Assembly: GCF_965263415.1 (NCBI RefSeq)
Contig: NZ_OZ253671.1
Span: forward strand, 1,292,347 to 1,324,346
Source: Nitrosopumilus sp.
GTDB taxonomy: Archaea; Thermoproteota; Nitrososphaeria; Nitrososphaerales; Nitrosopumilaceae
Length of the DNA: 32,000 nucleotides
Direction: 5' to 3'
Numbering within the stretch: the stretch's first letter is position 1; every line of letters starts with the position of its first letter. The position numbers and the translations under genes are program-made. Of this stretch, positions 6,560 through 18,525 are shown piece after piece. Under the pieces are notes generated by a model. It did not search any database and was not told the origin of the DNA. It was given only the letters and a program-made list of their open reading frames with translations.

Positions 6560-7246
6560 TCATTTAAGCAGTGTTTTCAAATCAATGTTCTTTTTGAAGA
6601 TTCTATTTAGGGATGCATCACTCATATCTTTGATAAATGGGATAGAGCCTAGAACCTTGACTCCTGTGAGATTCTGCAAATCTCGTTTCAAGTTTTTGAT
6701 TGGGTAACCACAATCATCAAAATCATTAATGATTATTCCTTTGACTGGGATTTTGTATTTTTCACACATCTTAATTGTCATTATTGTGTGATTTACAGTT
6801 CCAACCTTACTTCGAGTTACAATTACGGTGGGAATTTTCATTTCTTTAATCAGGTTTGTAATGTAATAGTCTTTGAGAATAGGAGTCATTATTCCACCCA
6901 TTCCTTCTACAAGAATCATTTCATGAAGTTTAGATAATTTTTTGAAACTAGATAGAATGGTAGAAATTTTTGGTTTTGTTTTTAGATTCTTCCAAGCAGT
7001 GTAAGGTGATGCAGGAATTGGAAAGAACTGGGGGTTTATCAAATTTTCAGGATCAGATGTTTGTGCAGCTCTTGCTAAAATTTCAATATCTTCAGATTTG
7101 TAACCTTTTTTCTGTGCAGCACCTGCTGCAAAAGGTTTCATTACACCAACATCTACATTCATTTTTCGTAATGCAACTGCCAATCCTGATGTGATGTATG
7201 TTTTACCAACATCAGTATCAGTTCCAGCAACAAAAATGGATTTCAT
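6560..7246 (-). CDS. bioD: Dethiobiotin synthetase
   Basis: 228 aa. N-terminal P-loop FVAGTDTDVGKT and a downstream EGMGG motif typical of BioD. Confidence 0.85.
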   Translation of the reverse strand: MKSIFVAGTDTDVGKTYITSGLAVALRKMNVDVGVMKPFAAGAAQKKGYKSEDIEILARAAQTSDPENLINPQFFPIPASPYTAWKNLKTKPKISTILSSFKKLSKLHEMILVEGMGGIMTPILKDYYITNLIKEMKIPTVIVTRSKVGTVNHTIMTIKMCEKYKIPVKGIIINDFDDCGYPIKNLKRDLQNLTGVKVLGSIPFIKDMSDASLNRIFKKNIDLKTLLK

Positions 7247-7326
7247 CAGAGATATTTTTAGAATATTCCATTGATTAACTCATCGGTTGGACTATATTGT
7301 TAAAAATATCCATGAGAAAGTGAATC

Positions 7327-7512
7327 ATGACAGAAAATTTTCAAGATTCTAAAAAATACGAGACAGTAACAATAGAATCCAAAGTCAGAGAAGGTGTTTT
7401 TCATAAAGTCATTAAAGACTTGGAAAGTGGAAAAGCAGTATCTTGTTCATGTAAGTGTTGGAGTAAAGGTAGAAAAGCCTGTGCTGCTATGAGAAGTATA
7501 GGGGTTGAATAA
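7327..7512 (+). CDS. Cys-rich small hypothetical protein inside the biotin cluster
   Basis: 61-aa ORF with a CSCKCWSKGRKAC cluster. Lies between bioD (divergent) and bioA. Confidence 0.35.
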   Translation: MTENFQDSKKYETVTIESKVREGVFHKVIKDLESGKAVSCSCKCWSKGRKACAAMRSIGVE

Positions 7513-7563
7513 TTTTCAACAATAATCGGATAATTATTAAGATCTGATATCCGAGTAAATCAG

Positions 7564-8877
7564 TTGAAAAGTTCTGTTTGGCATCCAAATACCCAAATGA
7601 AGGAATGGGATTCATTTGATAAAATTACCAAGGCCAAAGGTGTGTGGCTTGTAGACTCTAAAGGTCACAAAATGATTGATGCTGTTGCCTCTATGTGGTG
7701 TAATGTTTGGGGACATTCTAATCCTCAATTGGTGAGATCAATTACAAATCAAAGTAAAAAACTGCAACATTCTTCCATGTTCAACATTACAAACGAGCCT
7801 GCAGAACAACTTGCAGATAATCTTGTGAAAATATCTCCAGGAATGCATAAGGTGTTCTATTCAGATAATGGTTCATCGGCAATGGAGATTGCAATCAAGA
7901 TTGCATTACAATATTGGAAAAACATTGGAGATAGAAAAACAGAGATTGCAACTGTAGAAAATGGATATCATGGAGACACATTTGGGGCCATGTCAGTAGG
8001 GTACGTTCCGGAATTTTTTGGCAAGTTCAAAAAACAATTATTCAAAACAATACAATTTCCAGTTCCAAACAAATACAGATTACCAAAAGGATACGCAATA
8101 TTGGATTATCAAAATCAATGCCTTGAAAAAATAGAGAATGAGTTTTCAAAAAATGACAGTATTGCCGCGTTTGTGATGGAAAGCGGTGCACAGATGGCAG
8201 GCGGTGTTATTATTTATCCAAAAGGATTTCAAAAAAAGATTAGTCAATTATGTAAAAAGTATAACGTATTGTTTGTACTAGATGAGATTGCAACAGGATT
8301 TGGAAGATTAGGATCAATGATACAATATCAAGAACAAAAATCCATTCCAGATATTGTAGCATATGGAAAAATGTTGACTGGAGGATATCTTACAATGGCA
8401 GCTACTCTTGTAAATAAAAAAATCTATGATTCATTTTTAGGAGAATTTAATGATTGGAGGCATCTTTTCCATGGACATACATACACTGGAAACCCTCTTG
8501 CAGCATCAGTTGCAAATGAGAACATCAAAATGTACAAGAAAAACAATCTAATTAAAAAAATTCAAAAAACATCCAAAGTGTTTGAAGAATATTACAATGA
8601 AATCTCGGAAATTGACATCGTAGGAGATATCAGACACAAAGGAATGTTAATGGGAATTGAACTAGTCACAGACAGAAAGAAAAAGACCCCAATTCACCCT
8701 AAAAAATCAATCAACAAAATATTCTATGAGACAGGAAAGAAAAACGGAATTTATCTTAGAACTTTAGGAAACATAATCATGCTAGTGCCCCCTTTGGTAA
8801 TATCAGAAAAGGAGTTAAATTTACTCCTAAAGAACACCATCAAGACCATTCAAGATGCAAAATCACAAGTAATCTAA
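7564..8877 (+). CDS. bioA: Adenosylmethionine-8-amino-7-oxononanoate aminotransferase
   Basis: 437 aa. VWHPNTQM N-terminal block (compare IWHPYTSM of E. coli BioA) and class-III aminotransferase motifs (DEIATGFGRLG, YGKMLTGGY). Upstream in-frame stop at 7531-7533 leaves TTG 7564 as the only start before the conserved block. Confidence 0.9.
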   Translation: MKSSVWHPNTQMKEWDSFDKITKAKGVWLVDSKGHKMIDAVASMWCNVWGHSNPQLVRSITNQSKKLQHSSMFNITNEPAEQLADNLVKISPGMHKVFYSDNGSSAMEIAIKIALQYWKNIGDRKTEIATVENGYHGDTFGAMSVGYVPEFFGKFKKQLFKTIQFPVPNKYRLPKGYAILDYQNQCLEKIENEFSKNDSIAAFVMESGAQMAGGVIIYPKGFQKKISQLCKKYNVLFVLDEIATGFGRLGSMIQYQEQKSIPDIVAYGKMLTGGYLTMAATLVNKKIYDSFLGEFNDWRHLFHGHTYTGNPLAASVANENIKMYKKNNLIKKIQKTSKVFEEYYNEISEIDIVGDIRHKGMLMGIELVTDRKKKTPIHPKKSINKIFYETGKKNGIYLRTLGNIIMLVPPLVISEKELNLLLKNTIKTIQDAKSQVI

Positions 8878-8950
8878 CTGTTAACCCCCTATAGGCTCAA
8901 AGGTTAACCTTTCCATTATTGTTATAAATGGAAAATATCTGTGTTAGATT

Positions 8951-9931
8951 GTGAGCACACTAGAGTTCATCAAAGAATGTCAAGAAAAAGTATTTTCAGG
9001 AAATCATATTACTGCAGAAGATGCTGAAAAACTGTTAAACATTCCTGAAGAAAATCTCAAAGATTTAGCAAGATGTGCAAATGAAATAACTCGAGATTTT
9101 AATGGAGAAAAGGTAGATGTTGAACAACTAAACAATATTAAGAAAAATGCATGTAGTGAAGACTGTACATTTTGTGGTCAGTCTGCATTCTTTGACACAG
9201 GTATAGATACATATCAATTACCATCACCAGAAGAAGTTGTATCAAAAGCTCAAAAAGCAAAAGAAGAAGGTGCAGAATCATATTGTCTTGTTGCAGCATG
9301 GAGAGAGCCATCAAAAACGGATTTTGAAAAAGTTTGCAAGATTATAACTGAAATTAATGACAAAGTAGGAATCAGTGTTGAATGTAGTTTAGGATTTCTC
9401 ACACAAGAACAAGCAAACAAACTCAAAGATCTCAAAGTAAAAAGATACAATCATAATTTAGAGACAGCAAAATCAAAATTCCCAGAAATATGTACCACCC
9501 ACACATATGAAGACAGATTAAAGACATTAGGAATTGCAAGAGATGCCGGTTTAGAATTATGTACAGGTGGAATTATCGGGTTGGGAGAAACTAGAGAGCA
9601 AAGACTAGAATTAACATTGGAATTAGCAAGATTATACCCTGAAGAAGTAACAATCAATATTTTGGTACCCGTTCCAGGTACTCCTTTGGAATTACAAACA
9701 GACTTGGCAAATTCTGAAATTGTCAGAATGTTTTCAGTGATTAGATTTTTACTTCCAGAGTCAGTGATTAAAATCTCCGGCGGAAGAGAAACCAACCTGG
9801 ATGATTCAGGCGAGGAATTACTTCAAAGTGGGGCAAATGGAATCATTACCTCAGGATACCTTACCATGGGAGGTAATGAAGCTCAAAAAGACCTGCAAAT
9901 GATTGAAAAAATAGGTCTTAAATCACAATAA
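8951..9931 (+). CDS. bioB: Biotin synthase (radical SAM)
   Basis: 326 aa. CSEDCTFCGQS is the CxxxCxxC radical-SAM motif. Auxiliary-cluster positions present (YCLVAAW, VECSLG, LELCTGGIIGLGET, SGGRE). GTG start with a TATAAA box about 25 nt upstream. Confidence 0.9.
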   Translation: MSTLEFIKECQEKVFSGNHITAEDAEKLLNIPEENLKDLARCANEITRDFNGEKVDVEQLNNIKKNACSEDCTFCGQSAFFDTGIDTYQLPSPEEVVSKAQKAKEEGAESYCLVAAWREPSKTDFEKVCKIITEINDKVGISVECSLGFLTQEQANKLKDLKVKRYNHNLETAKSKFPEICTTHTYEDRLKTLGIARDAGLELCTGGIIGLGETREQRLELTLELARLYPEEVTINILVPVPGTPLELQTDLANSEIVRMFSVIRFLLPESVIKISGGRETNLDDSGEELLQSGANGIITSGYLTMGGNEAQKDLQMIEKIGLKSQ

Positions 9932-9984
9932 AAAATCAACAGTAACAGTTGTTGAAATAGACATTCAAAAAATTTTATTTTAAA

Positions 9985-10719
9985 CTAATTACACACGGTA
10001 AAGTTATCGTCATTATCATCATACAGATGTTGAATAGCATCTATATGACATTCAGATATGTATGGAATTTCAGTAAGAATCATACTTGACATCAAATCAT
10101 CTGAATCAATAGAATGGCCTAGACCAAGAGCATGTCCAAATTCATGTCTTATGATAGTTGTTAAATCATCAGCAGATAATTTTTCTACATCATAAATTAC
10201 AATATGAGATTGTAAAATTTCACGATCATGAGTCATGATTCTAGCATATCCAGAATATCCATCAGACTCTTTATAATTTGAAAATTGAATTACAATGTTA
10301 TTTTCATTACTTAATGTAGAAACAATGTTGAATTTTGCAGGAATATTGTTTTTAGTATCAATATTTTTAGCAGCAGTTAATGCACCTTCCCAACCCAAAT
10401 AATAGGTGGATTTTGAATTTACCAAGTTATCATTGGATGGATTATCTAATTCAATTGTGTCATGAGATGTTAACGCATAAACAACTGCATCAAGTTGTTC
10501 ATCAGTTAACAGATGACTACCTAAAAAGACAACATCTAGTTCTTCATGGGGTAAAACATTCCAAAATGCAGAAGTGATGATTCCGTTTTTTTCAAGAGAA
10601 AGGAATTTGGATGTTAATGGTGCAACTGCATCAGTATCTTGGATAAAACCAGATAATGAGATCATCAAAAATCCTGCCAACATACAAGAGAAGACTTTGG
10701 AATTTAGTCTGATTTTCAT
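9985..10719 (-). CDS. Secreted zinc metalloprotease, matrixin-like metzincin (M10)
   Basis: 244 aa. Signal peptide, then HEFGHALGLGHS (HExxHxxGxxH) followed by a Met-turn candidate DDLMS. Confidence 0.8.
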   Translation of the reverse strand: MKIRLNSKVFSCMLAGFLMISLSGFIQDTDAVAPLTSKFLSLEKNGIITSAFWNVLPHEELDVVFLGSHLLTDEQLDAVVYALTSHDTIELDNPSNDNLVNSKSTYYLGWEGALTAAKNIDTKNNIPAKFNIVSTLSNENNIVIQFSNYKESDGYSGYARIMTHDREILQSHIVIYDVEKLSADDLTTIIRHEFGHALGLGHSIDSDDLMSSMILTEIPYISECHIDAIQHLYDDNDDNFTVCN

Positions 10720-10726
10720 ATTTTTG

Positions 10727-10784
10727 ACCTATTTCCCAAAGTTGGGAATAAGGTATAAAGTTACCTATTTCCCAAAGTTGGGAA
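10727..10784. promoter_or_regulatory. Two identical 22-bp elements (ACCTATTTCCCAAAGTTGGGAA), 36 bp apart, flanking a TATA box; candidate operator
   Basis: Copies at 10727-10748 and 10763-10784. Each contains TTCCCAA-AG-TTGGGAA (7-nt inverted arms; cores 10733-10748 and 10769-10784). TATAAA at 10754-10759 (TTTATA on the minus strand) lies between them, about 37 nt upstream of the protease ATG at 10719. Confidence 0.5.
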
Positions 10785-10888
10785 CTACATTTAGGCGTAA
10801 AACAGCGTGCCTGAAATGGATGTAAACAGAAAATAGAAGAGATCGCCTTCCTATAGGCATATAAGATTTCAGCAATCAAAATTAGACC

Positions 10889-12013
10889 TTGAAGAAAAAA
10901 TTGAAATTTGTGGATGCAGAATTGCTTGAAATTAAACAAAACAACCTGTATAGAAAATTAAAGTTTGGGAAAATACAAAAGGAATCCATTACAATTAACG
11001 GTAAAAAATTATTAAATTTGTGTTCAAATGATTATCTTGGATTACCAGTAACTAAACTACAAACAAACCAACTTCAATCAAGTTCAAGATTAGTTTCAGG
11101 AAATGATGAATCATACTTAAAACTAGAAAAAGAGCTTGCAAAACACAAATCCCAACAAAACAGTTTGATTTATCCTACAGGATACATGGCAAATCTTGGT
11201 TCAATTTCTGCAATTGCAAAAAAAGGAGATTTAATTCTAAGTGACGAATTAAATCATGCAAGTATTATAGAGTCATGCAAATTAACAGATGCCAAAGTTT
11301 CAGTGTACAGACATAATGATATGCAAGATTTACAATCTAAATCAAAACAAAAAGCACAAAACAAGTTTATCATAACTGAAGGAATATTTAGCATGGATGG
11401 AGATGTATCACACTTAAAACAAATTACAGAGATTGCAGAGAAAACCAATGCGATAACAATTGTAGATGATGCACATGGCGATTTCGTAGTAGGAAAAGAC
11501 GGAAAAGGAACACCAAATTATTTTAACGTTGGGAAAAAAATTGATTTGTATGTTAGTAGCTTAAGTAAGGGATTAGGATCATTTGGAGGATACATTGCAG
11601 CACAAAATAATGTGGTTGATTTGTGTATAAACAAATCAAAGTCATTCATTTACACATCAGCACTGCCATCACTTTTAGTAAAACATTCTCTAAAGCGATT
11701 CAAATCAAATAGAGAAAAACAAAGAAAAAAACTAGAAAAAAATACAAAATCATTAGCAAAAGGCCTCAGAGAGATAGGTTTTGAGATAAACTCAGAATCT
11801 CAGATAATTCCAATAATTATAGGAAAAGAAAAGTTAGCCATGGACTTTGGTAAATTCTTATTTGAAAATGGAGTATTTGCACAGCCCATAAGATATCCTA
11901 CAGTACCAAAGAATCAAGCCAGATTGAGGATTTCAGTCACAGCATGGCTAAATGACAAGGATGTTGAGAGAGCCTTTGAGATATTTGAAAAAGCATACGT
12001 AAAATTCTGCTAA
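10889..12013 (+). CDS. bioF: 8-amino-7-oxononanoate synthase
   Basis: 374 aa. N-terminal ..NNLYRKL, PLP-enzyme blocks (SNDYLGL, DDAHG, SSLSKGLGSFGGY with the PLP lysine). TTG start with CATATAAG about 25 nt upstream. Confidence 0.85.
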   Translation: MKKKLKFVDAELLEIKQNNLYRKLKFGKIQKESITINGKKLLNLCSNDYLGLPVTKLQTNQLQSSSRLVSGNDESYLKLEKELAKHKSQQNSLIYPTGYMANLGSISAIAKKGDLILSDELNHASIIESCKLTDAKVSVYRHNDMQDLQSKSKQKAQNKFIITEGIFSMDGDVSHLKQITEIAEKTNAITIVDDAHGDFVVGKDGKGTPNYFNVGKKIDLYVSSLSKGLGSFGGYIAAQNNVVDLCINKSKSFIYTSALPSLLVKHSLKRFKSNREKQRKKLEKNTKSLAKGLREIGFEINSESQIIPIIIGKEKLAMDFGKFLFENGVFAQPIRYPTVPKNQARLRISVTAWLNDKDVERAFEIFEKAYVKFC

Positions 12014-12214: not shown

Positions 12215-12949
12215 ATGGCAGAGATAAGTCTAGCAGTTGCAGCATTGGCAGGACTAGGTTCATTTGTTGCACCATGTATCTTGCCCATGATTCCTGCATT
12301 TCTTGCATATCTTTCAGGAACTACACTTTCAGAATTAAACCAAAAAGATGGAACAAAGACAGTTTCAATTAACAGAGCAAACATTATCCTAAACTCTGTA
12401 TTCTTTGTACTTGGATTTTCTGTAGTTTTTTCAACATTAGGAGTAATAATCAACAGTACACTTTCATCAACGTCAGGAGAGATAGTAGATGGATTTAACC
12501 AGATAGGGGGAATAATCATTATCGGATTTGGGATATTCTTACTTCTTTCAATGAAGATAAACAAATTAAATTTAGAAAAGAAATTTTTCCCAAAAAGATC
12601 AAAGGCAAGTTATCCAATGTCATTTGTTTTTGGTTTGGCATTTGCAGCAGGTTGGACTCCATGTGTTGGACCAATATTAGGAACAATACTTACGCTTGCA
12701 GCAACAACACCATCAGTTGCATTCAATTTACTTTTAGTATATTCATTGGGATTAGGAATTCCATTTATCTTAATTGGAGTGTTTTATTCTAGAGCAAGTA
12801 AAATAATTCGTTCAATGAATAAACATCTAAAATATTACAACATAGTTCTTGGCGGATTCATTATAGCATTAGGAGTTCTAGTATACACGAATCAACTAGC
12901 ATATATTGCAAACTTTCCACTTCTCAATGAACTGTTACTACTAGGGTGA
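12215..12949 (+). CDS. ccdA: CcdA/DsbD-family transmembrane thiol-disulfide electron transporter
   Basis: 244 aa, polytopic. The two signature Cys-Pro motifs are present: APCILPMIP and WTPCVGP. Confidence 0.85.
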   Translation: MAEISLAVAALAGLGSFVAPCILPMIPAFLAYLSGTTLSELNQKDGTKTVSINRANIILNSVFFVLGFSVVFSTLGVIINSTLSSTSGEIVDGFNQIGGIIIIGFGIFLLLSMKINKLNLEKKFFPKRSKASYPMSFVFGLAFAAGWTPCVGPILGTILTLAATTPSVAFNLLLVYSLGLGIPFILIGVFYSRASKIIRSMNKHLKYYNIVLGGFIIALGVLVYTNQLAYIANFPLLNELLLLG

Positions 12950-12953
12950 TGAA

Positions 12954-14054
12954 ATGAAATCAGAAATTAAAACAGCAATTATTCTTGCAGCAGTAATAGG
13001 AATAGGAATCACGGCCCTAAGTTTGTCATTTTCAACACTTGATCAGCCTAGTGTTTCACACATGTCAAATGATGACTCAAGTACTATAGACAAGTCTGGA
13101 TTCAAAAAAGCACCTGACTTGGTAGGAATTGCTCACTATCTGAATACAACTCCTGAAGAATTAACACAAGAAATTGAAGGCAAAGTAGTGCTGTATGACA
13201 TTTGGACATATAGCTGCATTAATTGTATCAGAACTCTACCATACATCACAGCTTGGGATGACAAATATGCTGATCAGGGATTGTTAATTGTTGGAGTACA
13301 TTCTCCAGAATTTGAATTTGAAAAAGTTCCTGAAAATGTACAAATGTCAATTGAAAAACACGGAATCAATTATCCAGTTGTCATGGATAATGACATGGAG
13401 ACTTGGAAAGCATTTGAAAACAGATACTGGCCAAGAAAGTACATTGCAGATCATGAAGGGTACATCAGATATGATCATATTGGAGAGGGAGGATATCAAG
13501 AAACTGAAAAAATCATTCAACAATTAATCAAAGAAAGATCTGATGCATTAGGAATTCAAATGGCATCTGCCTCATCACTAGTAGATATTGAAGAGTTTGA
13601 GCATTCGTTGTTTAGAACGCCAGAATTGTATTTCGGGTATTACTTTGCACAAAACAGAAATCAGTTAGGAAGTGAAGAGGGATTCCAACCAGAAAAAACA
13701 GTTGTGTATGAAGAGTCAGATAAAATAGAATTGCACAAGTTCTATCCAATTGGAACGTGGCAAAACCACGAAGACAGTATGGAGTTAATTTCTGAAGAAG
13801 GAGAGATAAAGTTACTGTACAATGCAAAAGAAGTAAACATTGTTACTGCAAACAATGCTGAACTTGAGATTTATCTTGATGAGGAATCATTACCAGCACA
13901 ATACTCTGGTAATGACATTACATCTGGAAATATTCTAAGTGTGTCTGAACCAGGATTATACAACATCATTACCAGTGAAGAGAGTGCGTCTCATGTATTG
14001 GAGATAAAAGTCAAGGGTAAAGGATTTCAAATATTCACATTTACCTTTGGATAG
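12954..14054 (+). CDS. Membrane-anchored thioredoxin-like protein, DipZ C-terminal type (Trx domain plus extra beta-rich C-terminal domain)
   Basis: 366 aa. TM anchor, WTYSCINCIRTLPY (CxxC), GVHSPEFEFEK and YWPRKYI blocks as I recall them from DipZ-type proteins, then about 170 aa of extra domain. Starts 4 nt after ccdA. Confidence 0.8.
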   Translation: MKSEIKTAIILAAVIGIGITALSLSFSTLDQPSVSHMSNDDSSTIDKSGFKKAPDLVGIAHYLNTTPEELTQEIEGKVVLYDIWTYSCINCIRTLPYITAWDDKYADQGLLIVGVHSPEFEFEKVPENVQMSIEKHGINYPVVMDNDMETWKAFENRYWPRKYIADHEGYIRYDHIGEGGYQETEKIIQQLIKERSDALGIQMASASSLVDIEEFEHSLFRTPELYFGYYFAQNRNQLGSEEGFQPEKTVVYEESDKIELHKFYPIGTWQNHEDSMELISEEGEIKLLYNAKEVNIVTANNAELEIYLDEESLPAQYSGNDITSGNILSVSEPGLYNIITSEESASHVLEIKVKGKGFQIFTFTFG

Positions 14055-15082: not shown

Positions 15083-15382
15083 ATGAGTGATGAGAAAAGT
15101 CCTTGGGTGCTTGTAAGTAATGTTTCAAAAGATACCAATCCACAAGATCTAGAAAGAATTGCTCCACAAATCTCAACACTTGTTGATGAATGGCAATCTC
15201 AAGGAAGAATTATGTGGTCAGGTGCGTTTGATAACCAAGTATCATCAATGGCCGTGTTTGAAGCAACAGAAGAAGAAGCAAAAGAGTTTTTCAAAAAATA
15301 TGAAAGTATTTGTTCTGGTGTTTTGGGTTATTATCTCTATAAATGGGATGCAATGCCAATTCTTTCAGTTCTAGCAAAGTAA
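15083..15382 (+). CDS. Hypothetical protein, possibly YciI-like alpha/beta fold
   Basis: 99-aa ORF. The pattern GRIMWSGAF...MAVFEATEEEAKEF is reminiscent of YCII-type proteins, but the similarity is weak. Confidence 0.45.
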   Translation: MSDEKSPWVLVSNVSKDTNPQDLERIAPQISTLVDEWQSQGRIMWSGAFDNQVSSMAVFEATEEEAKEFFKKYESICSGVLGYYLYKWDAMPILSVLAK

Positions 15383-15941: not shown

Positions 15942-16109
15942 GTGGGGTGCAGAGGTATTTGTGAAAGGTATAGATCAGAAAGAAAAAGATACCAAATAGG
16001 TGTAAAACGATGTACATCATGTGATGCATACATACAAACAGACAATGCACAATGTCCATGCTGTGGCACAGCATTAAGAACAAAACGTAAATCAAAATTA
16101 AAAAAATAA
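15942..16109 (+). CDS. Possible 55-aa zinc-ribbon protein (GTG start)
   Basis: Own translation: (M)GCRGICERYRSERKRYQIGVKRCTSCDAYIQTDNAQCPCCGTALRTKRKSKLKK, with four Cys pairs and a basic tail. TATA-like TTATAGTATAA lies about 25 nt upstream. The track's antisense ORF 15913-16149 looks non-protein-like. Confidence 0.45.
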   Translation: MGCRGICERYRSERKRYQIGVKRCTSCDAYIQTDNAQCPCCGTALRTKRKSKLKK

Positions 16110-16218
16110 AAAAATTTTTTCGAGAACCGATAATTGAGATAATTCTCATTACATAGAGTTAGAATAATTTCGAAGAATGTACCGATCGTTTAAATGAAAA
16201 ATTTCAAGTCAAGTTACA

Positions 16219-18525
16219 ATGACAAAAACTAGCCTAGTAATATTTATGGCAGCAATCATGGTTGTCGGTACAGTTGGAATGAATCTAATTCCAAATGCTG
16301 AAGCACTAAAATCTCAAGGTACTGTTTCATCAAGTACAGATATCTGTGGATTAATGCTATGTTCTGAATACCCAGGCGGAAAAACAGCATACGAAGATGA
16401 ATGGGCAAAAATGTTCATACCATCAATTTATGGAGTTACAGCAGAAACTAAAACTGTTGAAATAAAACAAGTTTATGTTTCAGATCACAATGCTGATAAA
16501 GAATTCCCAGCCAAGCTAGATGTTTTTATCCACAAATTTGAGTTGGACAAAATATCATCTGATGAAGCATTAGATGGTATAATGGAGACGCATCAACAAT
16601 ACAAATCTGCTAGAATATCTAATGATATTATTGATGGCGTAGGTGAAAAACTTAATCACTACAATAGAGGAACATTGAATGTCGAAGAAGCTATCGAATC
16701 AATCCATTTGACAGCTGAACCACAAAATGTCAATCCTGAGTATCAGGGTGCATTAGATGAAGTGATTCACATGTTCGAGAAAGATGCAATATCAGCTGAT
16801 GAAGCTATTGATGGAATCAAAGAGACACATGCAGGCTTTGTTGATTTGTACATCACATCTGATCTTATTGAAGCAGTAGATGTAATCATTGGTCACATCG
16901 ATTCAGGTAAACTATCTGGAGCAGATGCAGTTGAAGCAGTTCACTTGACAGCTGAACCACAAAATGTCAATCCTGAGTATCAGGGTGCATTAGATGAAGT
17001 GATTCACATGTTCGAGAAAGATGCAATATCAGCTGATGAAGCTATTGATGGAATCAAAGAGACACATGCAGGCTTTGTTGATTTGTACATCACATCTGAT
17101 CTTATTGAAGCAGTAGATGTAATCATTGGTCACATCGATTCAGGTAAACTATCTGGAGCAGATGCAGTTGAAGCAGTTCACTTGACAGCTGAACCACAAA
17201 ATGTCAATCCTGAGTATCAGGGTGCATTAGATGAAGTGATTCACATGTTCGAGAAAGATGCAATATCAGCTGATGAAGCTATTGATGGAATCAAAGAGAC
17301 ACATGCAGGCTTTGTTGATTTGTACATCACATCTGATCTTATTGAAGCAGTAGATGTAATCATTGGTCACATCGATTCAGGTAAACTATCTGGAGCAGAT
17401 GCAGTTGAAGCAGTTCACTTGACAGCTGAACCACAAAATGTCAATCCTGAGTATCAGGGTGCATTAGATGAAGTGATTCACATGTTCGAGAAAGATGCAA
17501 TATCAGCTGATGAAGCTATTGATGGAATCAAAGAGACACATGCAGGCTTTGTTGATTTGTACATCACATCTGATCTTATTGAAGCAGTAGATGTAATCAT
17601 TGGTCACATCGATTCAGGTAAACTATCTGGAGCAGATGCAGTTGAAGCAGTTCACTTGACAGCTGAACCACAAAATGTCAATCCTGAGTATCAGGGTGCA
17701 TTAGATGAAGTGATTCACATGTTCGAGAAAGATGCAATATCAGCTGATGAAGCTATTGATGGAATCAAAGAGACACATGCAGGCTTTGTTGATTTGTACA
17801 TCACATCTGATCTTATTGAAGCAGTAGATGTAATCATTGGTCACATCGATTCAGGTAAACTATCTGGAGCAGATGCAGTTGAAGCAGTTCACTTGACAGC
17901 TGAACCACAAAATGTCAATCCTGAATACATGGGAGCTTTAGACGAAGTTCTACACGAGTATGAGTTAGATGGCACATCAGCAGATGATGCATTAGCAGAA
18001 ATCATCGAAATTCATGAGGGATTTACAGGATTATACATTACCTCTGAAGTCATTGAAGATGCAGGTATACAACTTAACATCTACGATACTGGTAATGTTT
18101 CTGTAGAACATGTAATTCATGAAATTCATGAAGTGATTGAAGATGCAGAACTTGCTGCAGCAGCTGCAATGTCTGATACGGGTATTCCAGTAATGAAAGA
18201 ATTGCCACCAAATCATGTCGATATACCAGTAGGTTCTGGTGTACCAGGATGTGAGGTAGATGATTGGTGTTACATGCCAGCTGATCTACATGTTCATGTT
18301 GGAGACACAGTAACATGGGTTAATTCTGATTCACTGCCACATACAGTAACTTCAGTTAGTTCTACAGGAGCAGAAAAACCTACACCTGAGGATGAAGATG
18401 GATTGTTTGATAGTGGTTTCATGTCTGGCGGCGATGAATGGTCTTATACATTCGACGTTGAAGGAGAATACTACTACTATTGCCAATTGCATCCATGGAT
18501 GGAAGGCGAAGTAACCGTTCAGTAG
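16219..18525 (+). CDS. Secreted or membrane-anchored tandem-repeat protein with C-terminal type-1 blue copper (amicyanin-like cupredoxin) domain
   Basis: 768 aa. N-terminal hydrophobic signal/anchor (aa 1-29). Seven ~79-aa acidic His-containing units (aa ~94-640; the middle five are identical). C-terminal ~110 aa (18193-18522) has ligand motifs LPHTVTS and YYYCQLHPWMEGEVTVQ (C-x2-H-x2-M, as in amicyanin CTPHPFM). TTTAAAT box about 27 nt upstream. Confidence 0.85.
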   Translation: MTKTSLVIFMAAIMVVGTVGMNLIPNAEALKSQGTVSSSTDICGLMLCSEYPGGKTAYEDEWAKMFIPSIYGVTAETKTVEIKQVYVSDHNADKEFPAKLDVFIHKFELDKISSDEALDGIMETHQQYKSARISNDIIDGVGEKLNHYNRGTLNVEEAIESIHLTAEPQNVNPEYQGALDEVIHMFEKDAISADEAIDGIKETHAGFVDLYITSDLIEAVDVIIGHIDSGKLSGADAVEAVHLTAEPQNVNPEYQGALDEVIHMFEKDAISADEAIDGIKETHAGFVDLYITSDLIEAVDVIIGHIDSGKLSGADAVEAVHLTAEPQNVNPEYQGALDEVIHMFEKDAISADEAIDGIKETHAGFVDLYITSDLIEAVDVIIGHIDSGKLSGADAVEAVHLTAEPQNVNPEYQGALDEVIHMFEKDAISADEAIDGIKETHAGFVDLYITSDLIEAVDVIIGHIDSGKLSGADAVEAVHLTAEPQNVNPEYQGALDEVIHMFEKDAISADEAIDGIKETHAGFVDLYITSDLIEAVDVIIGHIDSGKLSGADAVEAVHLTAEPQNVNPEYMGALDEVLHEYELDGTSADDALAEIIEIHEGFTGLYITSEVIEDAGIQLNIYDTGNVSVEHVIHEIHEVIEDAELAAAAAMSDTGIPVMKELPPNHVDIPVGSGVPGCEVDDWCYMPADLHVHVGDTVTWVNSDSLPHTVTSVSSTGAEKPTPEDEDGLFDSGFMSGGDEWSYTFDVEGEYYYYCQLHPWMEGEVTVQ
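16708..17924 (+). repeat. Perfect tandem repeat, period 237 bp, 5.1 copies, in-frame within the CDS
   Basis: Landmark GCTGAACCAC recurs at 16714, 16951, 17188, 17425, 17662 and 17899. The printed sequence lines are identical after a 3-nt shift per 240 nt. Identity breaks at 16707 (T vs C) and 17925 (A vs G). Diverged units flank both sides. Confidence 0.95.

Follow-up and report, generated by a model that had tools for sequence, protein, structure and literature searches.

What keeps five copies of a 237-bp unit free of any difference in the middle of a protein-coding gene, and what kind of protein results? The question is raised by a 32,000-nucleotide (nt) stretch of Nitrosopumilus sp. DNA (assembly GCF_965263415.1, contig NZ_OZ253671.1, positions 1,292,347 to 1,324,346 of the forward strand), the whole of which we call the window. 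The repeats lie within a gene whose 768-amino acid (aa) product is identical to WP_428324237.1, “cupredoxin domain-containing protein [Nitrosopumilus sp.]”. A preliminary description, made from the letters of the sequence alone, had noted the tract and proposed that it arose by very recent unequal crossover or gene conversion, that its copy number would vary between strains and that short-read assemblies would misjudge it. We regard the tract as probably the central part, recently expanded or homogenised, of an array of seven helical units. The array belongs to a blue-copper protein, likely extracytoplasmic, encoded in the chromosome of this marine ammonia-oxidising archaeon, and would serve as a stalk carrying the copper domain. 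Homologous proteins and genomic loci are referred to below by P and L numbers, the window protein being P0001.

Tandem Repeats Finder recognised a single strong array in the window (16708-17948, period 237, 5.2 copies, 99% matches, 0 indels). A base-by-base comparison of each position with that 237 nt further on delimited the perfect tract within it, which measures 1217 bp or 5.14 copies without a mismatch; the reported substitution-free unit, repeated about 5.1 times, is thus borne out at 100% identity. Chance cannot produce 980 consecutive matches at a fixed offset. The whole tract is in frame and consists of five 79-aa units followed by 32 nt that belong to the next, diverged unit; these 32 nt match the interior unit exactly and encode the conserved junction motif LTAEPQNVNPE. 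One edge unit flanks the five on each side, exactly in register: unit 1 differs from the interior unit at 108 of 237 nt (38% aa identity) and unit 7 at 77 of 237 (52%). The edge copies had already been described as homologous and strongly diverged, as they are, although the limits given for them (about 16495-16707 and 17925-18140) were slightly off and are corrected in Table 1.

Comparison with the nearest syntenic genome, a chromosome-scale sister metagenome-assembled genome (MAG; locus L001), sets identity within a genome against divergence between genomes. Flanking DNA is 84.5-91.7% nt-identical between the two, and L001 has the same 1+5+1 arrangement of units. Its interior units differ from one another by 0-1 nt and from the window unit by 16-17 nt; the first and last units of the two loci differ by 45 and 19 nt, respectively. 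The 16 differences between the interior units fall in 11 codons (6 synonymous, 5 non-synonymous changes) and are concentrated at aa 59-63 of the unit, VIIGH in the window and ETITL in L001, a patch that holds 5 of the 11 changed codons, 9 of the 16 nt changes and 4 of the 5 non-synonymous changes. With 1185 sites in the five window units and a divergence of 0.034 per site per lineage between the two genomes, units evolving independently at that pace should have gathered about 40 substitutions. None is observed; by arithmetic on the differences between the window and L001 units, the array was last homogenised or expanded within roughly the most recent 7% of the period that has elapsed since the window and L001 split. 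Nucleotide-perfect interior units between diverged edges are also found at L022 and L023 (five each), which lie in different genomic contexts and encode proteins 70% and 66% identical to that of the window, and at L002 (three units). The near-identity within L001, the orthologous edges and the recurrence of the pattern at L002, L022 and L023 support recent unequal crossover or gene conversion, as first proposed.

Two cassette forms of the patch at aa 59-63 (16882-16896 in the first interior unit, and correspondingly in each of the others) occur, both of them old: V[IL]I[IL]GH and E/D-x-I-x-L. With the “GH” form a unit gains a fourth His. The window has this form throughout its five interior units, and L001 has the other throughout its own five.

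Where might such an array begin? Genes with three units contain exact tracts of 24-64 nt at an offset of 237 nt, located at the unit junction and at the IHKFELDKIS motif, and these are plausible crossover substrates that could give a foothold for a first duplication. The 32-nt overlap into unit 7 of the window marks a site of this kind. We considered whether the junction DNA is itself selected as a recombination site and rejected the idea, synonymous-codon conservation there being no higher than elsewhere in the unit.

One close relative departs from the pattern. The preliminary description had held that five copies with accumulated substitutions in related strains would argue against recent or variable expansion; P0005 provides a partial case. 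This protein, compared at the protein level, is 90% identical to that of the window and has five interior units that are 86-94% identical, a mosaic of both cassette types with one recombinant (pattern oHoHooo). The first of its units lies nearer to L001, the last nearer to the window, and the protein may derive from a chimeric assembly.

Copy number is labile across the family. In a set of 80 homologous proteins, with units delimited by a unit hidden Markov model (HMM), the period is exactly 79 aa throughout and protein lengths are accordingly quantised: three units are present in 40 proteins, four in 16, five in ten, six in eight, seven in five and eight in one. Two-unit genes were found at loci of species-representative genomes, and one-unit relatives through an exhaustive profile search (see below), so that the range is 1-8 units in steps of 79 aa and the suggestion of variable copy number is upheld. 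Syntenic orthologues of the window locus have two (L006), three (L012), seven (L001) and, in the window, seven units. Proteins P0043 and P0068 are 100% identical over 393 non-repeat residues and have four and three units; P0002 and P0007 are 100% identical over 380 and have six and five. Of four further pairs with 97-98% identity, three differ in count and the other (P0073/P0074) has three units in both members. Some differences between relatives could reflect assembly collapse; for P0002 and P0007, the shorter contig has the higher count and a 1.67-Mb chromosome the lower. All 21 genome loci belong to Nitrosopumilus or Nitrosopumilaceae, and a scan of metagenomes added two loci only, L024 and L025. 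The cultured Nitrosopumilus sp. Nsub (L011) is among the carriers.

The relationships among units also distinguish the middle of the array from its ends. All of 74 first units have their closest counterpart among the first units of other proteins, 73 of 74 last units have theirs among other last units, and for 66 of 109 interior units the closest is a paralogue within the protein itself. A tandem array homogenised from within, whose edges remain orthologous, classically leaves this signature. Interior units are 100% identical in many proteins and 54-97% identical in others. On a neighbour-joining tree of the non-repeat parts, changes in copy number are scattered over the family, and the seven-unit proteins P0001 and P0081 each pair with a three-unit protein (P0015 and P0017). 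The topology is weak here because the four are about equidistant (78-83% identity). The “GH” cassette (VIIGH) of the middle unit agrees with the pairing, being present in P0001 and P0015 and absent from P0081 and P0017, and this agreement favours independent expansion, on two occasions, of a single middle unit, or else two contractions.

Two unusual members of the family came to light in these comparisons. In a Nitrosopumilaceae MAG (CBDCCK010000002.1), the orthologue at L005 is split inside the array by a 1.3-kb insertion (L005:7128-8469), which encodes, on the strand opposite to the gene, a DDE transposase (Pfam PF01609, E 2.6e-6). P0098 (276 aa, from JGI/IMG) combines an N-terminal CGLxLCSEYPGG motif with about 96 aa of a related helical unit, duplicated perfectly in tandem, and is without a cupredoxin domain; the name given by its source, “LytR/AlgR response regulator”, is apparently wrong.

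The protein itself has three parts. At the N-terminus, residues 1-29 form the sole stretch with a mean Kyte-Doolittle hydropathy above 1.6 (maximum 2.37 at aa 6-24), and A27 and A29 of an A-x-A motif are nearly invariant in 74 homologues. The segment is either a Sec-type signal peptide or an uncleaved membrane anchor. It is followed by a head in which C43, G44, L45, C48, S49, Y51, G53, G54 and K55 are at least 90% conserved in the same 74 proteins; the motif recurs in the divergent relatives P0098 and P0101. The seven units then span aa 85-637. No C-terminal sorting signal was found in the protein, whose C-terminal end is formed by the cupredoxin domain.

This last domain is well supported, by sequence and by a predicted structure, as a plastocyanin/amicyanin-like type-1 copper domain, with electron transfer as its predicted role. 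Residues 683-768 match Pfam PF00127 (plastocyanin/azurin type) with 46.8 bits against a gathering score of 21.2. The best sequence matches in the PDB are two Nitrosopumilus maritimus entries, 9cck (7.9e-15) and 5fc9 (1.2e-14), with whose cupredoxins the ligand set His...Cys-x2-His-x2-Met aligns, and there is a further conserved Cys pair, C678/C684. AlphaFold2 places beta strands at aa 666-767, as befits the Greek-key beta-sandwich of this domain class, and Foldseek superimposes the model on 5fc9 with a TM-score of 0.87 (E 6e-7). Assignment to amicyanin or plastocyanin proper was rejected, as the NCBIfam equivalog models score below their cut-offs (49.8 against 110 and 44.1 against 88).

To describe the repeated unit, we turned to structure prediction and profile comparison. 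AlphaFold2, with a 74-sequence alignment, predicts the array with a predicted local distance difference test score (pLDDT) of about 90 and four helices per unit, arranged as two helix-turn-helix hairpins. In the full-length model helix 4 continues into helix 1 of the next unit; a two-unit model (pLDDT 86.6) has a six-residue loop there instead, and its residues 81-90, at the junction, have a pLDDT of 67. The 553-aa array is strongly acidic, with 119 Asp and Glu against 23 Lys and Arg, a net charge of about -96 and 30 His. Four residues of the unit, H21, E24, E76 and H79, vary hardly or not at all and form HxxE and ExxH pairs in every unit, and the junction motif HLTAEPQNVNPEY is the most conserved part of all. 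Single units had no match in Pfam above the gathering score, with E values of 0.04 or more only, and the two-unit model had no usable match in the PDB by Foldseek, the best (E 0.4) being designed PPR and helical-repeat proteins. Several candidate assignments were discarded: DUF6892 (38 bits over the whole protein) is a sum of repeated weak matches with no individually significant stretch, AAA_29 and other whole-protein Pfam matches likewise add up sub-threshold matches to which single units contribute nothing, and a SHOCT-like bihelical domain (PF22746 and relatives), suspected by eye, reached at best E 0.14 and 12.2 bits against a cut-off of 27, in unit 1 only.

A profile of two units, searched exhaustively against 1.84 billion representative proteins, retrieved only 28 clusters. 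Outside the repeat-stalk family the module was found only in four ZnuA-family proteins, P0100, P0102, P0109 and P0111 (Pfam PF01297, E 1e-64 to 1e-77), whose source names are zinc ABC-transporter substrate-binding proteins, one of them from Chloroflexota; the hmmsearch E values were 1.4e-15 and 2.4e-13. In these proteins the two-hairpin module is repeated 2-6 times, with HGHxH linkers between copies, in an insert that splits the match to the ZnuA profile. ZnuA carries a His-rich loop at this position. The match is not compositional, since the real ZnuA inserts score 39-85 bits and 300 shuffles of each no more than 6.6 bits. Profile alignment by hhalign gave a probability of 97.6% (E 3.5e-12, 144 columns), with the shared motif [LI]D.[VI][IV]H.FE.[GD].IS[AS][ED][ED]A[IL]..I[KE]E. 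The archaeal module of two hairpins and the repeated inserts that bacterial ZnuA zinc-binding proteins carry in their His-rich loop are homologous. In P0100 and P0102 the copies are nearly identical and joined by His-rich linkers, so that the module is prone to tandem expansion there too.

The history that we consider probable for the array starts from the commonest and likely ancestral form, with a first, a middle and a last 79-aa unit. Unequal homologous recombination or replication slippage between units, the mechanism we infer, would amplify, contract and homogenise the middle unit, initially through short exact tracts such as that of 32 nt at the junction and later through whole 237-bp units. 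Edge units would stay diverged because they have unique flank on one side, and protein length would shift in 79-aa steps on very short evolutionary time-scales. Several observations weigh against this history: both the number of interior units, five, and their perfect identity depend on the assembly, no length variation was observed within the window's own species, whose nearest sequenced relative has the same count, and P0005 speaks as much for an older array that was homogenised as for a first-time expansion. The array might instead be old, its copy number held by stabilising selection, and gene conversion might keep five units identical at a constant number, so that length would not vary between strains of this clade. 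L001 would fit, having the same layout with a homogenised variant of its own between flanks that are 8-15% diverged; L022 and L023 also have exactly five perfect interior units, the heterogeneous mosaic of P0005 is what an older array should look like between conversion events, and no perfect array with more than five interior units occurs among the homologues. With the same count in the closest genome and five interior units in four lineages, stabilising selection combined with conversion keeps some chance of applying to the clade, if clearly the smaller one. However, the four lineages nearest the window (P0001, P0081, P0015 and P0017) comprise two with three units and two with seven, proteins that are identical outside the array differ in count, syntenic orthologues range from two units to seven, and P0005 is of limited weight if chimeric. 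The two histories are not exclusive because unequal exchange resizes and homogenises at once; expansion or conversion alike, several events are needed among a few close lineages. 

It is very unlikely that the count or the perfect identity is an artefact of assembly or polishing, although a perfect 1.2-kb repeat is a typical failure point for assemblers. The predicted hazard to short-read assemblies is real: three k-mer-assembled short-read MAGs have contigs that end inside the array (L014 with L009, L018 with L019, and L015), and the 90% cluster of the window protein includes truncated fragments. On a 1.7-kb contig, L025 has two units, one of them a hybrid, and the first 913 nt, with the 5′ part of the gene, are 99.5% identical to the five-unit L024. 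Against an artefact, the window protein lies on a 1.64-Mb contig, and independent chromosome-scale assemblies with different unit sequences have the same pattern (L001, 1.59 Mb; L002, 1.67 Mb; L022, 1.85 Mb). The reading frame is intact, family lengths fall in exact 79-aa steps, and the consensus of L001 was not forced to identity because it keeps a single-base difference in one unit. The two metagenome loci also hold an in-frame truncated unit of 68 aa (L024:3742-3945) and the hybrid of an interior and a last unit (L025:565-1038), either of which may be an out-of-register recombination product or an assembly collapse.

Turning to function, the array would form a strongly acidic, all-helical stalk or tether between the N-terminal signal or anchor and the type-1 copper domain. 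Its copy number would set the distance or reach of the copper domain from the attachment point, between membrane and S-layer, and with it the number of His/Glu-bearing hairpins on display. In ammonia-oxidising archaea, the carrying of electrons through the pseudo-periplasm is ascribed to blue copper proteins (PMC13475601), a view that would give tether length a plausible physiological meaning. Three points count against a spacer of this kind. If the N-terminus is cleaved, the tether would lose its putative anchor; the inter-unit junction is lower in confidence in the two-unit model and differs between models, which makes a rigid array uncertain; and the high conservation of the junction motif would not be expected in a passive spacer.

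The units might be metal-binding modules in the first place, their His/Glu hairpins binding Cu(II) or Zn(II) and their number tuning metal capture or buffering near the copper protein. We regard this as doubtful, even with the near-invariant HxxE and ExxH pairs, the array's acidity and 30 His, and a non-compositional match that falls, outside the family, only in metal-binding proteins at the position of the His-rich loop. That loop binds zinc. Wei and colleagues, in a 2007 paper cited in PMC3872050, reportedly proposed that it also has a regulatory role in zinc transport. However, the archaeal units are without His-rich linkers, between which the ZnuA hairpins may be mere scaffolding; conserved His and Glu on helices can be purely structural; and metal binding alone leaves the difference between edge and interior units unexplained. 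Surface antigenic variation, with changes in length and sequence serving to evade viruses, grazers or a host, appears very unlikely. Bacterial surface proteins of variable length have been discussed in connection with immune evasion (PMC8201768), and the clustering of window/L001 changes at aa 59-63 could be read in this way. Yet the functional head here would be an electron-transfer domain, not an adhesin, and both variants of the patch are old and common to several lineages rather than lineage-specific novelties. Moreover, if attached by its N-terminus, a Nitrosopumilus protein would probably be situated beneath the S-layer. The features of the gene are collected in Table 1.

Table 1 Features of the repeat-stalk cupredoxin gene in window coordinates
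Feature	Position	Strand	Basis or remark
TTTAAAT, archaeal TATA-box-like element, about 24 nt upstream of the ATG	16189-16195	+	read from sequence
Repeat-stalk cupredoxin coding sequence, complete, 768 aa + stop	16219-18525	+	open reading frame list and translation; 100% match to P0001
N-terminal hydrophobic segment, aa 1-29, MTKTSLVIFMAAIMVVGTVGMNLIPNAEA	16219-16305	+	hydropathy and conserved A-x-A
Cys pair C43-x4-C48 (CGLMLC), then YPGGK motif, N-terminal head	16345-16362	+	conservation
Unit 1, N-edge 79-aa unit	16471-16707	+	diverged; in-register HMM match
Units 2-6, five nucleotide-identical 237-bp (79-aa) units	16708-17892	+	0 differences in all pairs
Unit 2	16708-16944	+	identical to units 3-6
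Unit 3	16945-17181	+	identical to other interior units
Unit 4	17182-17418	+	identical to other interior units
Unit 5	17419-17655	+	identical to other interior units
Unit 6	17656-17892	+	identical to other interior units
Full perfect period-237 tract, five units + first 32 nt of unit 7	16708-17924	+	exact self-match
Unit 7, C-edge unit	17893-18129	+	diverged from interior units
Ala/Glu-rich helical extension and low-confidence linker, aa 638-661, stalk to copper domain	18130-18201	+	model: helical up to aa 651, followed by lower-pLDDT coil
C-terminal type-1 copper cupredoxin domain	18202-18522	+	Pfam, PDB, Foldseek, ligand conservation
Copper ligand H708	18340-18342	+	invariant in 74 homologues
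Copper ligand C755	18481-18483	+	invariant in 74 homologues
Copper ligand H758	18490-18492	+	invariant in 74 homologues
Copper ligand M761	18499-18501	+	invariant in 74 homologues

The TATA-box-like element is the putative promoter of the repeat gene itself; a scan for bacterial sigma-70 sites returned 13, fewer than in shuffled controls (mean 21.1). The window as a whole holds a core chromosomal gene set, with biotin synthesis genes, CdvB/Snf7, DUF371, a proteasome alpha subunit and a ribosomal-protein cluster with tRNA-Asn, and an origin of the gene in a mobile element or island was rejected on this ground. A function could not be read from an operon either, as flanking genes vary between lineages and only a 99-aa ORF travels with the gene. 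This ORF (15083-15382, plus strand) lies directly upstream of the repeat gene in the syntenic loci L001 and L014 and also in loci with otherwise dissimilar flanks (L003, L005, L008, L013 and L018), making a conserved gene pair; it had no match in Pfam, NCBIfam or the PDB. Also directly upstream, at about 15942-16109 (plus strand), is a small Cys-rich ORF of about 55 aa that would begin at a GTG and has a zinc ribbon-like CxxxC...CxxC...CxCC pattern. Two to three genes upstream (12215-14054, plus strand), a gene for a DsbD/CcdA-like membrane protein stands next to one for a ResA-like thioredoxin, and at the non-syntenic L023 (9993-11337) DsbD_TM and thioredoxin/glutaredoxin genes occur 1.7-3 kb downstream of the repeat gene copy. 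These neighbours may be related to the two conserved Cys pairs of the protein. Further away, the biotin-synthesis cluster (6560-12013) comprises BioD-like, BioA-like, BioB-like and BioF-like genes, with a matrixin-family metallopeptidase gene on the opposite strand (9985-10719) between the last two. Tandem Repeats Finder also reported short imperfect duplications at 517-572 and 8041-8085 (periods 28 and 22, about two copies each, 78-82% matches).

The energy metabolism of ammonia-oxidising archaea depends on copper proteins located in the narrow gap between membrane and S-layer. To our knowledge, little has been learnt of the partners that their many small blue copper proteins have or of how these are arranged in space. 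A repeat-stalk family confined to Nitrosopumilaceae, in which otherwise identical genes differ in steps of 79 aa, would amount to a natural “ruler” experiment for the position of an electron carrier. Length variation driven by recombination would also gain an archaeal redox protein as an example, the literature searched offering bacterial adhesins only. The link to ZnuA identifies an unannotated helical module, present in widely separated organisms, that is worth testing for metal binding. In practical terms, the locus is a marker of strain heterogeneity and a predictable point of breakage or collapse in short-read MAGs.

How does the protein compare with known systems? The genetics are ordinary. 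Concerted evolution by unequal crossing-over is the classical model for satellites, ribosomal DNA and repeat-protein genes, and the window array does not differ from it in principle: the interior is homogenised, the edges escape, and paralogues within a genome are more alike than orthologues between genomes. What is new is the architecture, the restriction to Nitrosopumilaceae and the connection to ZnuA. The searchable literature contained no link between Nitrosopumilus plastocyanin-like proteins and tandem repeats and no account of the repeat-stalk family. Among cupredoxins, the domain resembles the N. maritimus purple cupredoxin (5fc9) and the C-terminal cupredoxin domain of a multicopper oxidase (9cck) in sequence and in its His-Cys-His-Met set, and 5fc9 in fold. 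However, 5fc9 is a single-domain protein and 9cck a domain attached to an enzyme, whereas the window cupredoxin sits at the end of a 553-aa repeat array. The His-rich-loop inserts of ZnuA (P0100, P0102, P0109 and P0111/P0112, from Chloroflexota and others) share with this array a tandemly repeated two-hairpin module, sometimes in nearly identical copies. In ZnuA the module is set within a loop of a metal-binding protein and separated by HGHxH, whereas the archaeal array is free-standing, has HLTAEPQNVNPEY junctions and is joined to a cupredoxin.

The closest parallel in behaviour is with the bacterial Periscope Proteins, SasG, Rib, Sgo_0707 and CdrA (Whelan et al. 2021; PMC8201768), an account in which archaea are not mentioned; in the searchable literature no archaeal Periscope Proteins were found, and papers containing both words concern bacterial biofilms and adhesins. 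Rather unlikely is the proposal that the present family is the first archaeal counterpart of these variable-length surface proteins with a stalk that is itself functional, its hairpins, homologous to the metal-recruiting loop inserts of ZnuA, capturing or buffering copper beside a tethered blue-copper carrier. If so, recombination that alters copy number would enable marine ammonia oxidisers to adjust, over very few generations, both how far a respiratory component reaches and how much metal it can hold. The protein behaves like a Periscope Protein but stands apart from them in its organism, an archaeon, and in the type of its head. The repeats of Periscope Proteins are Ig-like, beta-grasp or three-helix-bundle domains, and the archaeal repeat is an unclassified four-helix unit; their stalks are rod-like, with termini about 180 degrees apart and short rigid linkers, and anchored to the surface, and the archaeal stalk is known from its sequence and predicted secondary structure. 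The polarity is reversed in the archaeal protein, with an N-terminal signal or anchor and a C-terminal head, and this head is a type-1 copper redox domain in place of an adhesin. Common to both are tandem folded domains encoded by identical or nearly identical DNA (here five 237-bp units at 100%, with pLDDT of about 90). Probably shared as well are an array placed between an attachment end, here the putative anchor, and a functional end domain, and a repeat number that varies between close relatives, with the most variation where the repeats are most identical.

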